DNA of 64,000 bases from Escherichia coli (GTDB lineage: Bacteria > Pseudomonadota > Gammaproteobacteria > Enterobacterales > Enterobacteriaceae), in the NCBI RefSeq assembly GCF_003790525.1, contig NZ_CP033635.1; one strand, given 5' to 3'. The notes below the pieces were generated by a model. It was not told where the DNA came from. It worked only from the letters and a program-made list of their open reading frames with translations, and made no database searches. Numbering within the stretch: position 1 is the stretch's first letter; each line of letters opens with the position of its first letter. This document shows positions 26,504-30,016 of the stretch, in pieces. The position numbers and the translations under genes were made by a program.

Positions 26504-26958
26504 TGGAGTTAATGGTCGTTCATCCACATATTTTCTGGCTCAGTCTCGGCGGGTTGCTGCTGGCAGCCGAGATGCTGGGCGGAAATGGTTATTTGTTGTG
26601 GAGCGGCGTGGCAGCGGTGATTACCGGCCTGGTGGTCTGGCTGGTGCCGCTGGGTTGGGAGTGGCAAGGGGTGATGTTTGCCATCCTGACGCTGCTCGCC
26701 GCCTGGCTGTGGTGGAAATGGTTGTCGCGGCGGGTGCGCGAACAAAAGCACAGCGACAGTCATTTAAACCAGCGCGGGCAGCAGCTGATTGGCCGACGTT
26801 TTGTGCTGGAATCTCCGCTGGTCAACGGGCGCGGTCATATGCGCGTCGGCGACAGTTCATGGCCTGTCAGCGCCAGCGAGGATCTCGGTGCAGGTACGCA
26901 TGTTGAAGTCATTGCGATAGAAGGGATAACGCTGATCATCCGTGCGGTCATCGCCTGA
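26500..26958 (+). CDS. ybbJ: NfeD-like membrane protein, partner of QmcA
   Basis: ORF track, 152 aa; 4-nt overlap with qmcA. Confidence 0.85.
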
Positions 26959-27045
26959 TGCGACGCTGACGCGTCTTATCATGCCTACAAAATATGCCCG
27001 AATCGTAGGCCAGATAAGGCGCTTGCGCCGCATCCGGCATATAGC
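26954..27045. repeat. REP/BIME element at the left edge of the accessory insert
   Basis: GCCTGATGCGACGCTGACGCGTCTTATCATGCCTAC ... GTAGGCCAGATAAGGCGC...CGCATCCGGC motifs. Confidence 0.8.
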
Positions 27046-27060
27046 CGAGTAGAGGCAAAA

Positions 27061-27423
27061 TTACTCTTCCCGGCCTTTACCCATACTTTTTTGGTCTTCA
27101 TCCGGATAGTGTTTTTTTAGATATTCCAGGACGTTTTTATTGACCTTGTGTTGGGTATACACCCACCCTTTCCAGTAATCAGGTTGGTCCAGGTAAACTT
27201 CTGGCGGAATGGTGAAATCAGAAAGCGTTAACCATTCGGCTAACAGATCGGGGTTTCGTTTCTGGATCAACTGCAACAGCATGATCAGCGACATGGCAGA
27301 GGCAGGAGCCGTACTATCGCCGCTTAAATACTTCCACACTGTCGACCGGTTCGAACGAAAAAGGATCGGTAGCAATGCCCGGTCCAGATTCATTTCATTA
27401 AAAATCTTCTCAAATTCATTCAT
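27061..27423 (-). CDS. Hypothetical protein, 120 aa, no signal peptide; function unknown
   Basis: ORF track; not recognised; divergent from the adhesin gene across an AT-rich intergenic region; not present at this position in my recollection of K-12. Confidence 0.5.
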   Translation of the reverse strand: MNEFEKIFNEMNLDRALLPILFRSNRSTVWKYLSGDSTAPASAMSLIMLLQLIQKRNPDLLAEWLTLSDFTIPPEVYLDQPDYWKGWVYTQHKVNKNVLEYLKKHYPDEDQKSMGKGREE

Positions 27424-27788
27424 TTAAATTTCCTGCCTGGCGTAAACCTCTTAAAAATTGAGATTTATCAAAGAAACGCATTTTAGCACACATCAGGAAC
27501 CGCTTCACGTTTAGTCCAGAAACAGAATTTATTTCGCTTATCAAAACAAGTCTTTACTCTTTTTTACATTGAAAGAGCACGAAATAATTTCCTTTTTTAT
27601 TTATATAAGAAACTATTTTTGTTCCTTATTGGTGGTGTTTACGCTTACACAAGACAAAAATGCGCTTTACATCACACAAATGGCGGCGTAGATTTCGATC
27701 AAATTGCAACGCAGTTTATTTCTTAAAACAATATTATTTGTTTCTTATAGAAACATTAATGCGACTTATTTTGAACAAGAGAAAATGA

Positions 27789-28805
27789 ATGAAAACTGTA
27801 AACGTAGCTTTACTGGCACTCATAATTTCAGCAATATCCAGCCCTGTTGTTTTAGCTGGTGATACCATTGAAGCGGCGGCAACAGAGCTTTCAGCCATTA
27901 ACTCTGGCATGTCGCAATCGGAGATTGAGCAGAAGATTACCCGCTTTTTAGAACGCACAGACAACAGCCCCGCTGCGTATACCTATTTGACTGAACATCA
28001 CTACATCCCTTCTGAAACACCTGATACCACTCAGACTCCCACTGTCCAGACAGATCCTGACGCAGGACAAAAAACCGTTGCCGCTACAGGTGATGTACAG
28101 ACAACCGCCCGTTATCAGAGCATGATCAACGCCCGACAGTCTGCGGTAACTGATGCCCAGCAAACGCAAATTACAGAGCAACAGGCGCAGATCGTAGCCA
28201 CACAAAAAACGCTCGCCGCGACTGGAGATACGCAAAATACCGCGCATTATCAGGAGATGATTAATGCCAGACTGGCGGCTCAAAATGAGGCTAATCAGCG
28301 CACTACCACGGAACAAGGGCAGAAAATGAATGCACTGACAACCGATGTGGCAGCACAACAGCAAAAAGAAAGGGCTCAATACGATAAACAAATGCAAAGT
28401 CTGGCGCAGAAGTCTGTCCAGGCACATGAGCAAATTGAAAGTCTGAGACAAGATTCCGCACAAACGCAGCAACAGTTAACCAACACGCAAAAACGGGTCG
28501 CAGATAACAGCCAACAAATTAACACGCTCAATAACCATTTCGATTCTCTGAAAAACGAAGTTGAGGACAATCGTAAAGAAGCCAATGCGGGAACTGCATC
28601 TGCCATTGCTATCGCCTCACAACCACAGGTGAAAACCGGTGACGTGATGATGGTGTCAGCGGGAGCGGGAACGTTCAACGGTGAATCTGCGGTGTCTGTA
28701 GGAACATCTTTTAATGCCGGAACGCATACGGTACTTAAAGCAGGTATTTCTGCGGATACACAATCTGATTTCGGTGCGGGTGTCGGCGTGGGATATTCGT
28801 TCTAA
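27789..28805 (+). CDS. Miniature trimeric autotransporter adhesin-like protein: signal peptide, Gln-rich coiled-coil stalk, YadA-type C-terminal beta-barrel anchor
   Basis: ORF track, 338 aa; N-terminal signal-like MKTVNVALLALIISAISSPVVLAG; stalk-anchor junction KEANAGTASAIAIASQPQ; anchor GDVMMVSAGAGTFNGESAVSVGTSF...VLKAGIS...GAGVGVGYSF with terminal aromatic; purine-rich RBS-like AAGAGA upstream. Confidence 0.8.
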   Translation: MKTVNVALLALIISAISSPVVLAGDTIEAAATELSAINSGMSQSEIEQKITRFLERTDNSPAAYTYLTEHHYIPSETPDTTQTPTVQTDPDAGQKTVAATGDVQTTARYQSMINARQSAVTDAQQTQITEQQAQIVATQKTLAATGDTQNTAHYQEMINARLAAQNEANQRTTTEQGQKMNALTTDVAAQQQKERAQYDKQMQSLAQKSVQAHEQIESLRQDSAQTQQQLTNTQKRVADNSQQINTLNNHFDSLKNEVEDNRKEANAGTASAIAIASQPQVKTGDVMMVSAGAGTFNGESAVSVGTSFNAGTHTVLKAGISADTQSDFGAGVGVGYSF

Positions 28806-28858
28806 TTTTAACAGCAATTTCTTATTCGCAATTTTCCGCACATTATTTAAGGTTAACA

Positions 28859-29281
28859 ATGATGAATAGCTCCATTAAATCGTTTTCCCTGCTGGCGGTT
28901 ATATTACTGGCTGGCTGTAGTTCACCCACTTCCCGCATCGCAGATTGCCAGGCGCAGGGCGTCAGCCATGACACCTGTTATCTCGCAGAACAGCAGCGTC
29001 AGACGGCTATTTTAAGTGCATCCGAGGCGCAGGCATTTAAAAATGCAGAAGCCGCACAACATGCCCAGGCGGCAAAGAAAGCCATTTATAAAGGATTTGG
29101 CATGACCTTTAGAATGAGCAGTAAGAACTTTGCTTATCTCAATGATTCATTATGTGCAATTGATGAAGACAATAAAGATGCCACTGTTTATCAGTCAGGT
29201 CTTTATAACGTCATTGTTTATCACCACACGGGAAAAGTCGCCTTAATGAAGGAAGGTCAGTTTGTGGGTTATTTAAAATGA
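28859..29281 (+). CDS. Putative lipoprotein, 140 aa
   Basis: ORF track; signal peptide with lipobox LLAGC (Cys20); immediately downstream of the adhesin gene. Confidence 0.6.
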   Translation: MMNSSIKSFSLLAVILLAGCSSPTSRIADCQAQGVSHDTCYLAEQQRQTAILSASEAQAFKNAEAAQHAQAAKKAIYKGFGMTFRMSSKNFAYLNDSLCAIDEDNKDATVYQSGLYNVIVYHHTGKVALMKEGQFVGYLK

Positions 29282-29481
29282 AGGAGCAAAGGAAAATCCC
29301 CCTGACGCATATTATGATTATCGGTGCGTTTATTTTTGCCTTCTTGCAAGTGGTGTTATTAGCCTCCCTGGTTCACGCTGTGAATGTTAACAACGAAATC
29401 CAGGAAGGCTTATTTCAGTCGGGGCGCATTATGGTAGAAAGTTTGCAGCATATTCTTTCGGTGCAAACGGGGATTAACTGA
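29278..29481 (+). CDS. Putative small single-pass membrane protein, 67 aa
   Basis: ORF track; start overlaps the lipoprotein stop (ATGA); one hydrophobic helix IMIIGAFIFAFLQVVLLASLV. Confidence 0.4.
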   Translation: MKEQRKIPLTHIMIIGAFIFAFLQVVLLASLVHAVNVNNEIQEGLFQSGRIMVESLQHILSVQTGIN

Positions 29482-29484
29482 TTT

Positions 29485-29892
29485 TCACCCCGCCCGATGA
29501 TGACAGCAGCCGGAGAGATTTTCGATAATCGGGCAGTCGGCGCTGTCATCACCGGGGCAGGCATTCGCCAGCGCCAGTAGCTGGTTGCGCATGGATTGCA
29601 GTTCTTCGATATGCCGTTCGATCTCCGCTACCTTCTCCAACGTACGACGTTTGACGTCGGCACTGTGACGCTGCGGATCGTTAAACAGATTCACCAGCTC
29701 GCCGCTCTCTTCCAGGTTAAAGCCCACCTGGCGTGCCTGCCGCAGTAAGGTCAGTTCGTTGAGATGCTGCTGCGTGTAGGTTCGATAACCATTTTCGCTG
29801 CGCATCGGCGGCGTCACCAGCCCCTTCTCTTCATAGAAGCGGATTGCTTTGCTGGTCAGGCCGGTAATTTTTGCTACATCGCTAATGTTCAT
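29485..29892 (-). CDS. cueR: MerR-family copper-responsive regulator
   Basis: ORF track, 135 aa; C-terminal metal-binding CCHH; recognised CueR. Confidence 0.92.
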
Positions 29893-30016
29893 CGTTCGCG
29901 CAACGCCTCCTGTGCTTTGTTAAAGGGTTTCAACAAATATTCAAGCACGTTTTTTTGCCAGTGCGAATATCGACCGCCACCACAATAATACAGGAAGTAC
30001 TGCGCACAGAGAGGTG

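Follow-up and report, generated by a model that had tools for sequence, protein, structure and literature searches.

What kind of system lies between the convergent genes ybbJ and cueR, and what does it do? The question is raised by a stretch of 64,000 nucleotides of Escherichia coli DNA (contig NZ_CP033635.1; the whole stretch is referred to here as the window, and all positions are counted in it), which is 100% identical to E. coli SMS-3-5 (NC_010498.1) and in which the two genes are separated by an insert with four open reading frames (ORFs). The insert turns out to be an already catalogued island, O-island 29 (OI-29), in the version carried by SMS-3-5. In the interpretation that we favour and regard as likely, this copy of OI-29 is a four-gene chromosomal module composed of an autotransporter operon with a lipoprotein and a small membrane protein, together with a helix-turn-helix (HTH) regulator, and the effect of the island on motility is indirect. 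The island itself is thus known; what is left of value is a conflict between the published function and the sequence of its central protein, GmrA, and an undescribed family of autotransporter-linked lipoproteins.

Identity of the insert and nature of the 338-aa protein

The four ORFs of the insert, all found where an earlier reading of the letters alone (hereafter the sequence-only reading) had placed them, are the following:

27061-27423, minus strand: 120-aa ORF (ORF list)
27789-28805, plus strand: 338-aa ORF (ORF list)
28859-29281, plus strand: 140-aa ORF (ORF list)
29278-29481, plus strand: 67-aa ORF (ORF list)

In E. coli O157:H7 EDL933, OI-29 has been described as a 2,643-bp island with the same flanking genes, carrying z0638, z0639 (gmrA) and z0640 (PMC5826968, Yang et al. 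2018). The published OI-29 primers match the window exactly or with at most two mismatches, and their positions allow the published gene names to be assigned to the ORFs of the window: the cloning primers for gmrA have perfect matches at the two ends of the 338-aa ORF, its start (27789-27812) and its stop (28787-28806), the z0640 deletion primer maps to 27423-27460, and the z0638 quantitative PCR (qPCR) primer maps to 28917-28936. SMS-3-5 figures among the OI-29 carriers in Table S4 of the same paper (PMC5826968), and the counterpart of the island in strain Sakai is S-loop 43, with ECs0548 listed as a "Saa-like protein" among adhesion-related genes (PMC2323221). The suggestion of the sequence-only reading that this was an unrecognised and uncharacterised system is therefore not supported, and the published function of the YadA-like gene, as GmrA, fulfils in part the condition under which that reading was to be given up. 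The EDL933 description comprises three genes; the 67-aa ORF is a conserved fourth, unannotated there.

A Pfam search with the 338-aa protein gave one significant domain, YadA_anchor (PF03895, E 2.6e-11, residues 279-338, model positions 1-60 of 60), which bears out its earlier description as YadA-like. When compared with solved anchors using phmmer, residues 244-337 were found to align with those of AtaA (5.6e-7), Hia (4.7e-6 and 1.5e-5) and YadA (0.026), the AtaA and Hia alignments beginning at residue 241-244, in the helix that precedes the anchor. The anchor is the most conserved section among the alleles of the protein, and a PHROG "adhesin" match of 1.1e-21 was also obtained. The following features were recognised in the 338-aa protein:

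28623-28802, plus strand: YadA-type membrane anchor, residues 279-338, with C-terminal Phe338 (Pfam, phmmer)
27789-27857, plus strand: predicted Sec signal peptide, residues 1-23, MKTVNVALLALIISAISSPVVLA, cleavage before GD (hydropathy, manual reading)
27861-28085, plus strand: conserved N-terminal tip (about residues 25-75), followed by a Pro/Thr/Gln-rich linker (alignment)
28074-28316, plus strand: two imperfect stalk repeats of about 36 aa, residues 96-131 and 141-176, T[VL]AATGD.Q.TA.YQ.MINAR... (self-alignment score 105)

The signal segment has its hydropathy maximum (2.45) at residues 8-22, with Lys2 as the n-region and V-L-A preceding Gly24, and the longer autotransporter alleles carry equivalent signal peptides. 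The N-terminal tip, which is expected to lie farthest from the cell surface, is 61% identical to that of the longer E. coli alleles and 40% identical to that of a 633-aa autotransporter of Pseudocitrobacter; searches with the tip returned E. coli fragments only, with no domain name, and no Pfam family matched it. The protein is rich in Q (12%), A (14%) and T (12%) and has zero Cys and zero Trp, and residues from about 95 to 270 yield just weak matches of the coiled-coil type (SMC, ATG16, CCDC93). Alleles of 338, 471 and 594 aa occur, and the differences in length are inserted stalk repeats of about 123 aa; variation of stalk length by repeat insertion is usual in such fibres. The NCBI Prokaryotic Genome Annotation Pipeline starts the longer alleles internally ("LKADDAQ…"; loci L009, 2157-3206, and L008, 2526-3575), giving 349-aa products without a signal peptide; the true open frames begin at position 1773, and their products, of about 471 and 594 aa, have a normal signal peptide. 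From the anchor, the signal peptide and the coiled-coil stalk, the 338-aa protein appears to be a type Vc trimeric autotransporter, for which display on the cell surface would be expected.

The lipoprotein, the small membrane protein and the probable divergent regulator

The two small plus-strand ORFs had been described as a lipoprotein and a membrane peptide, and both descriptions held. The 140-aa protein has the lipobox L17-A18-G19-C20, with Cys20 invariant in 21 homologues, Ser at position +2 and a nearly invariant Cys30/Cys40 pair. By the Lol rule, Ser at +2 predicts sorting to the outer membrane, and the conserved Cys pair fits a periplasmic location. In the predicted structure, a long helix precedes an eight-stranded barrel that is modelled with confidence; zero Pfam families were matched at E <= 10. 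The family is small: of 1.84 billion cluster representatives, 152 match it at E <= 0.001, and the relatives present in the AlphaFold database are nearly all labelled just "Lipoprotein" or "uncharacterized". One match there is named "NfeD-like"; kinship with NfeD/YbbJ was rejected, as BLASTP gave no alignment. The two halves of the lipoprotein are also found in separate proteins: in loci L034-L061, the N-terminal part (lipobox and C.A.G.S.DTCYLAEQNRQ) stands alone in small proteins of distant Proteobacteria, and the C-terminal barrel occurs alone or in tandem arrays of 5-8 copies within proteins 870-2,000 aa long (examples are Aeromonas L036, Buttiauxella L042, Pseudomonas L043 and Skermanella L060).

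The 67-aa protein has a basic N-terminus, one strongly hydrophobic segment (windows 6-37, peak 2.76 at residues 14-28) as its single transmembrane segment, and a tail of about 30 residues; family searches gave no match for it. Its gene overlaps the lipoprotein gene by 4 nt (ATGA), and the gap between the autotransporter and the lipoprotein gene is 53 nt. The three O157 genes were all expressed in cells grown in Dulbecco's modified Eagle medium (DMEM), and all were at zero reads after attachment to HeLa cells (PMC5826968, Table S3). On the basis of the short gap, the overlap and the parallel expression of the O157 genes, we infer that the three plus-strand genes form an operon and are co-transcribed.

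The 120-aa protein, encoded on the opposite strand, has a helix-turn-helix fold of the lambda-repressor type and is likely to be the regulator of the module. Between its gene and that of the autotransporter lies the divergent region that the sequence-only reading had correctly described as very AT-rich and about 360 bp long. The following elements were found in it:

27424-27788, no strand: AT-rich divergent control region, 365 bp, 31% GC (GC count; 0.312)
27472, 27518, 27608, 27740 and 27749, no strand: five copies of the hexamer AGAAAC/GTTTCT, candidate operators (motif count)
27740-27754, no strand: palindrome GTTTCT-TAT-AGAAAC, 35 nt before the autotransporter start codon, putative binding site
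27666-27694, plus strand: promoter-like TTTACA-17-TAGATT, candidate operon promoter (9 of 12 consensus positions)

The five copies of the hexamer compare with 0.32 expected (15-fold), and none of 5,000 Markov simulations reached five. Conservation of the intergenic region extends across Escherichia and, in part, to Pseudocitrobacter; the hexamer positions are kept in five Escherichia loci, and three of them are kept in a metagenome-assembled genome (MAG) of Pseudocitrobacter. The repeats are thus candidate operators for the divergent HTH protein. The promoter-like site falls in the best-conserved intergenic block, also retained in Pseudocitrobacter, and would yield a leader of about 90 nt if functional.

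The module as a whole is conserved outside E. coli. In a scan of one genome per species, 51 loci with relatives of the lipoprotein were found. The full set of four was seen in E. whittamii, Escherichia sp. E1V33 and the Pseudocitrobacter MAG; Rahnella and Ewingella combine the regulator, autotransporter and lipoprotein genes. In Pseudocitrobacter faecalis all four genes are present in the same order at an unrelated chromosomal site adjoining a serine recombinase: a divergent 121-aa regulator, the 633-aa YadA-anchor protein, a second anchor-like fibre gene, a 171-aa lipoprotein and a 64-aa membrane protein, with identities of 45% for the regulator, 40% for the N-terminal region of the autotransporter, 39% for the anchor and 43% for the small membrane protein. 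In order to detect autotransporters near the lipoprotein loci, a hidden Markov model was built from the anchors, and an ORF was counted if it lay on the same strand and ended less than 400 nt upstream. Such an anchor-bearing ORF lies directly upstream in 14 of the 31 species-level loci that hold a full-length lipoprotein homologue. As a genome carries just a handful of anchor genes, this linkage is far above chance, yet it is not obligatory. Coiled-coil ORFs with anchor-like C-termini lying upstream in Enterobacter sp. (L015) and Phytobacter (L016) were not counted; in the latter, YadA_anchor was found only at E 0.9.

The autotransporters of Rahnella (L018, 4734-5939; L022, 3750-5936; L023, 4153-5925) and Ewingella (L031, 4085-5869) share a conserved N-terminal extension of about 45 residues (…IIAAYIAGNTNK.ELA.YFGVS.STIRRVL), which sits right before the hydrophobic core of the signal peptide and is not present in the E. 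coli protein. In Pfam, the L018 extension matched sub-threshold HTH families only (CENP-B_N, HTH_DeoR, HTH_28, Sigma70_r4 and GerE; E 0.1-0.6), and it does not resemble the extended signal peptide region known from other proteins.

The domains, the order of the genes and the recurrence of the module in other genera are read directly from sequence. In the scheme that we propose on this footing, a short trimeric autotransporter would be exported by Sec through its 23-residue signal peptide. Three C-terminal YadA-type anchors would form a 12-stranded outer-membrane barrel assembled by the Bam complex, and the Q/A/T-rich stalk with the small N-terminal tip would pass through this barrel and be displayed on the cell surface. 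The lipoprotein would be sorted to the outer membrane by its Ser at +2, with its Cys pair in the periplasm, and the 67-aa protein would be a single-pass inner-membrane protein whose synthesis is translationally coupled to the lipoprotein gene. Both may be partners of the fibre in the envelope, helping to build, anchor or stabilise it, a role that we infer by analogy with SadB and TpgA, the analogy being one of role and not of descent. The divergent XRE-type HTH protein would act on the repeated AGAAAC sites of the AT-rich intergenic region. With these parts, the earlier description of a surface-protein module agrees with what the sequence predicts, namely a YadA-anchor autotransporter, a lipoprotein, a small membrane protein and a divergent regulator.

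Several observations weigh against this scheme. The signal peptide of the 338-aa protein rests on hydropathy and reading by eye, and the trimer is predicted from the sequence. None of the head, neck and stalk Pfam domains of YadA was found at E <= 10; the protein is best described as headless, and such domains are common in type Vc proteins but do not define the type. The model of the 120-aa regulator is moderately confident only (mean predicted local distance difference test score, pLDDT, 68), and no significant HTH family match was obtained for this protein, the best Pfam match being MqsA_antitoxin at E 0.12 and NCBIfam giving none. Finally, about 40-55% of the lipoprotein loci have no detectable adjacent autotransporter, so a dedicated helper role is not obligatory.

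This last point also supports a different interpretation of the two small proteins, namely that they have an independent envelope function and merely travel with the autotransporter, for example inhibition or protection in the periplasm by a beta-barrel protein of the PliC/MliC/ACP type. Serratia silvae, with only an HTH gene, the lipoprotein gene and a small ORF, would agree with this, as would the separate existence of the two lipoprotein domains in other proteins. The lipoprotein is, however, only 7-12% identical to lysozyme inhibitors, Pfam MliC was not found even at E 10, and the adjacency to an autotransporter is far above chance. We regard this interpretation as doubtful, and retain the envelope-partner role.

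Sequence and published function of GmrA

According to the published interpretation, GmrA is a cytoplasmic activator whose binding to the fliA promoter turns on the class III flagellar genes, and OI-29 is primarily a motility-regulation island. The experimental evidence speaks against the favoured reading. Deletion of OI-29 or of gmrA led to less motility, less flagellation and lower fliA, fliC and motA transcripts; gmrA (z0639) alone complemented the motility defect, and epistasis with fliA was observed; His-tagged GmrA shifted a fliA promoter fragment in an electrophoretic mobility shift assay (EMSA) with competition; and FLAG-tagged GmrA gave a 7.75-fold enrichment of the fliA promoter in chromatin immunoprecipitation followed by qPCR (ChIP-qPCR) (PMC5826968). 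The same motility phenotype was seen in eight strains of other pathotypes, and the legend of Fig. S3B cites a DNA-binding domain predicted by CDD (PMC5826968). In addition, deletion of the whole island caused no adherence defect on HeLa or Caco-2 cells, and z0638 and z0640 had no motility effect (PMC5826968).

Against a cytoplasmic activator stands the sequence of GmrA, which begins with a Sec signal peptide and ends in a complete YadA anchor of the outer membrane. As insertion of such an anchor depends on Bam, GmrA should leave the cytoplasm. A recognisable DNA-binding domain was not found: the best Pfam candidate, TMF_DNA_bd (E 0.079), falls in the coiled coil among chance coiled-coil matches, no DNA-binding Pfam family was matched below E 0.05, and NCBIfam gave only SMC-type matches far below the cut-off. 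Moreover, the mature protein is acidic (22 K+R versus 35 D+E, net charge about -13). The forms of GmrA that were assayed also deserve attention. Judging from the primers, EMSA was performed with the complete precursor, in which an N-terminal His tag preceded the signal peptide, and the ChIP protein carried 3xFLAG after the terminal Phe. The terminal Phe is normally needed for outer-membrane assembly, and tags placed there or before the signal peptide are expected to block assembly or export. Both assays were thus probably performed with non-exported forms of GmrA.

Taken together, direct DNA binding by GmrA is hard to reconcile with its predicted export and anchoring, whereas the genetics may well be sound. 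We consider it improbable that GmrA is a cytoplasmic activator of fliA and probable that its published function is mis-assigned; an indirect origin of the motility phenotype is more likely, and envelope-to-flagella signalling or the cloned leader DNA may be its source. None of the papers in the library searched links GmrA to trimeric autotransporters, and at least four later papers found there, three of them reviews, repeat the transcription-factor label. Should this label be mistaken, flagellar regulation as modelled in enterohaemorrhagic E. coli (EHEC) contains a false node, and a widespread surface protein of EHEC, extraintestinal pathogenic (ExPEC), avian pathogenic (APEC) and neonatal meningitis (NMEC) E. 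coli lineages is unstudied as such. The sole HTH-fold protein of the island was tested just for motility and then set aside.

Origin of the island and comparison with known systems

The statement in the sequence-only reading that the 3' ends of ybbJ and cueR abut in K-12 was borne out by a K-12-type empty site (L004), where the ybbJ stop directly abuts the cueR stop with zero spacer. The insert itself is real, but its extent had been given as about 2.4 kb from position 27046: with the ybbJ stop at 26958 and the end of cueR at 29485, the complete insert is 26959-29484, or 2,526 bp. It had also been said to start after a repetitive extragenic palindromic (REP) element; this element does adjoin ybbJ, but it belongs to the insert, as the empty site holds no intergenic DNA. 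The two features of the left boundary are:

26959-27045, no strand: REP/BIME (bacterial interspersed mosaic element), 87 bp, right behind the ybbJ stop (sequence reading)
26931-26958, plus strand: left edge of the variable segment, final ~27 nt of ybbJ (occupied and empty sites differ)

The final 29 nt of ybbJ carry about 10 substitutions relative to L004, and the YbbJ C-terminus reads ...TLIIRAVIA* in the window, O157 and sequence type 131 (ST131), and ...TLHIRAVSS* in the empty-site genome. The 3' end of ybbJ thus differs with the state of the site, and the variable segment therefore begins inside ybbJ, at about 26931. An Rfam scan of the island gave merely sub-threshold matches to the REP-derived naRNA4 (26919-27075) and none in the AT-rich region. 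The insert is more AT-rich than its flanks, as had been noted: its GC fraction is 0.44, compared with 0.588 for ybbJ, 0.559 for cueR and 0.518 for the window.

The O157 copy occupies the same site with the same genes in the same order, with 95-99.7% nucleotide identity per compared segment and 96% protein identity between its autotransporter and the 338-aa protein. With 2,634 bp from one stop codon to the other (L002), it exceeds the SMS-3-5 copy by about 110 bp, and it has an extra REP unit behind ybbJ. Beyond cueR, O157 and some other strains have HlyD-family and ABC type I secretion genes, which we take to be the neighbouring island OI-28; SMS-3-5 retains there only a 98-bp remnant, annotated as a pseudogene just past cueR (29889-29986; L001, 6390-6487). 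Variable segments thus lie on both sides of cueR.

Using an island-only query, 1,416 of 5,426 complete E. coli genomes (26%) were found to match, 1,370 of them over at least 80% of the query length; nearly every carrier has a single copy, and all 1,427 matching places lie on chromosomes. The carriers include O157:H7, O55:H7, O145, APEC and human clinical isolates, to which the published list adds NMEC and uropathogenic (UPEC) strains, such as RS218, S88, UTI89 and IAI39 (PMC5826968). The accessory status proposed for the four genes therefore stands as far as distribution is concerned, with 26% of complete genomes carrying the island and K-12 lacking it. The following states of the ybbJ-cueR junction were seen:

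Empty: L004
Four-gene module: window, L002
Module with longer autotransporter alleles (about 471 and 594 aa): L009, L008
Module plus a gene for a 407-aa hypothetical protein: L008
407-aa gene alone: L010
Frameshifted remnant of the 407-aa gene, ST131: L003

The 407-409-aa hypothetical protein is an alternative or additional cargo of the junction (L010, 1078-2301; L008, 4374-5597; L003, 2110-2788; L011 and L013, 6709-7938), which accompanies the OI-29 module in E. whittamii and Escherichia sp. E1V33 too. An NCBIfam scan of this cargo and of the small ORFs of Rahnella gave zero matches.

E. whittamii and Escherichia sp. E1V33 carry the island at the same site. The flanking genes are 92.3% (qmcA), 87.4% (ybbJ) and 94.6% (cueR) identical in nucleotide sequence to those of E. 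whittamii, and the island genes diverge from it about as far as these core genes; the same pattern is seen with E1V33, and in the Pseudocitrobacter MAG island and flanking genes alike show about 71-84% identity. Within the island, evolution is fastest in the autotransporter passenger and the control region. Because divergence is similar in the island genes and in the core genes beside them, the simplest reading is that the island is an old chromosomal resident that would have been lost repeatedly, for instance in K-12-type lineages. Four independent gains of OI-29 have been proposed (PMC5826968); these, and horizontal acquisition, are not the only readings and probably not the best. Relatives of the module were also seen on the opposite flank of the qmcA-ybbJ (SPFH/NfeD) pair: in the Pseudocitrobacter MAG (L012, 4136-8276) the module is one gene pair away, between fetA and qmcA, and in S. 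silvae (L027, 5297-8222) an HTH gene, a lipoprotein gene and a small ORF lie just upstream of qmcA-ybbJ, with no autotransporter. This may reflect old synteny or a functional link.

Horizontal acquisition, as the sequence-only reading had it, is doubtful as a recent event. That the island is a recent mobile element, or a degenerate toxin-antitoxin or prophage remnant with the HTH protein as antitoxin or phage repressor, might be suggested by the 44% GC with its very AT-rich region, the patchy occurrence among E. coli lineages, the serine recombinase beside the P. faecalis copy and the matches of the autotransporter to prophage "adhesin/tail" PHROGs, but we found no integrase, transposase, tRNA or flanking direct repeats at the island, no copy in plasmid and phage searches, chromosomal copies throughout and no PADLOC match beyond coiled-coil noise, and we consider this explanation very improbable. 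The sole full-length autotransporter matches in PLSDB, NZ_CP134663.1 and NZ_CP141089.1, are 4.9-Mb E. coli records, evidently chromosomes filed as plasmids. A defence system (with PADLOC, the autotransporter yielded coiled-coil noise only, and the three remaining proteins had no match), a prophage remnant (PHROG matches only to anchor-type "adhesin/tail" families, with no phage genes nearby) and a toxin-antitoxin system (MqsA match at E 0.12, with no toxin partner) were each rejected.

When compared with known systems, the 120-aa protein is closest to the XRE/Cro-family HTH regulators (Aca2, the C-terminal domain of MqsA, HigA2, RsaL and the C-proteins). It differs from them by a conserved C-terminal extension of about 50 residues, with invariant P73, Y77 and G86, and, unlike such relatives, it has no toxin or anti-CRISPR partner beside it.

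The 338-aa protein shares with type Vc fibres (YadA, Hia and AtaA, and Saa and Eib of E. coli) a signal peptide, a coiled-coil stalk and a four-strand YadA anchor, and its anchor and preceding coiled coil align with the AtaA, Hia and YadA structures; the solved Eib structures gave no significant match. In contrast to YadA, it has no head, but a conserved N-terminus of about 50 residues of no matched fold and a Pro/Thr/Gln-rich linker. Its likeness to plasmid and phage autotransporters is limited to the C-terminal 30-57% (the anchor and part of the stalk), and the term "Saa-like" therefore rests mainly on the anchor.

The closest parallels to the operon are SadB-SadA and TpgA-AtaA, in which, as in the island, a small envelope protein shares an operon with a trimeric autotransporter. 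Like sadBA (PMC3953254), the lipoprotein gene is lost together with its autotransporter in K-12-type genomes. The island lipoprotein gene is downstream of the autotransporter and sadB is upstream, and the island lipoprotein has Ser at +2, whereas SadB has Asp and is located in the inner membrane (PMC3953254). Partners of the TpgA type have a BamE-like domain, with or without an OmpA peptidoglycan-binding domain (PMC12523085, 2026 preprint); the island lipoprotein has neither, its model being a helix and an eight-strand barrel. Homology of the lipoprotein to SadB or TpgA is supported by neither fold nor Pfam. In the 2026 preprint, which analysed the neighbours of autotransporters with a YadA head, SadB and TpgA were the sole described helpers and no new candidates were reported; headless fibres such as the 338-aa protein fell outside that head-bearing sample. 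With two helper families known so far, the lipoprotein family found downstream of short headless autotransporters is a concrete candidate for studies of fibre assembly and anchoring. Tentatively, and with chances that we place somewhat below even for both parts together, GmrA would be an outer-membrane trimeric autotransporter with an indirect flagellar effect, and the lipoprotein with its small membrane protein would form, after SadB and TpgA, a third and structurally unrelated family of autotransporter partners in the Enterobacterales.

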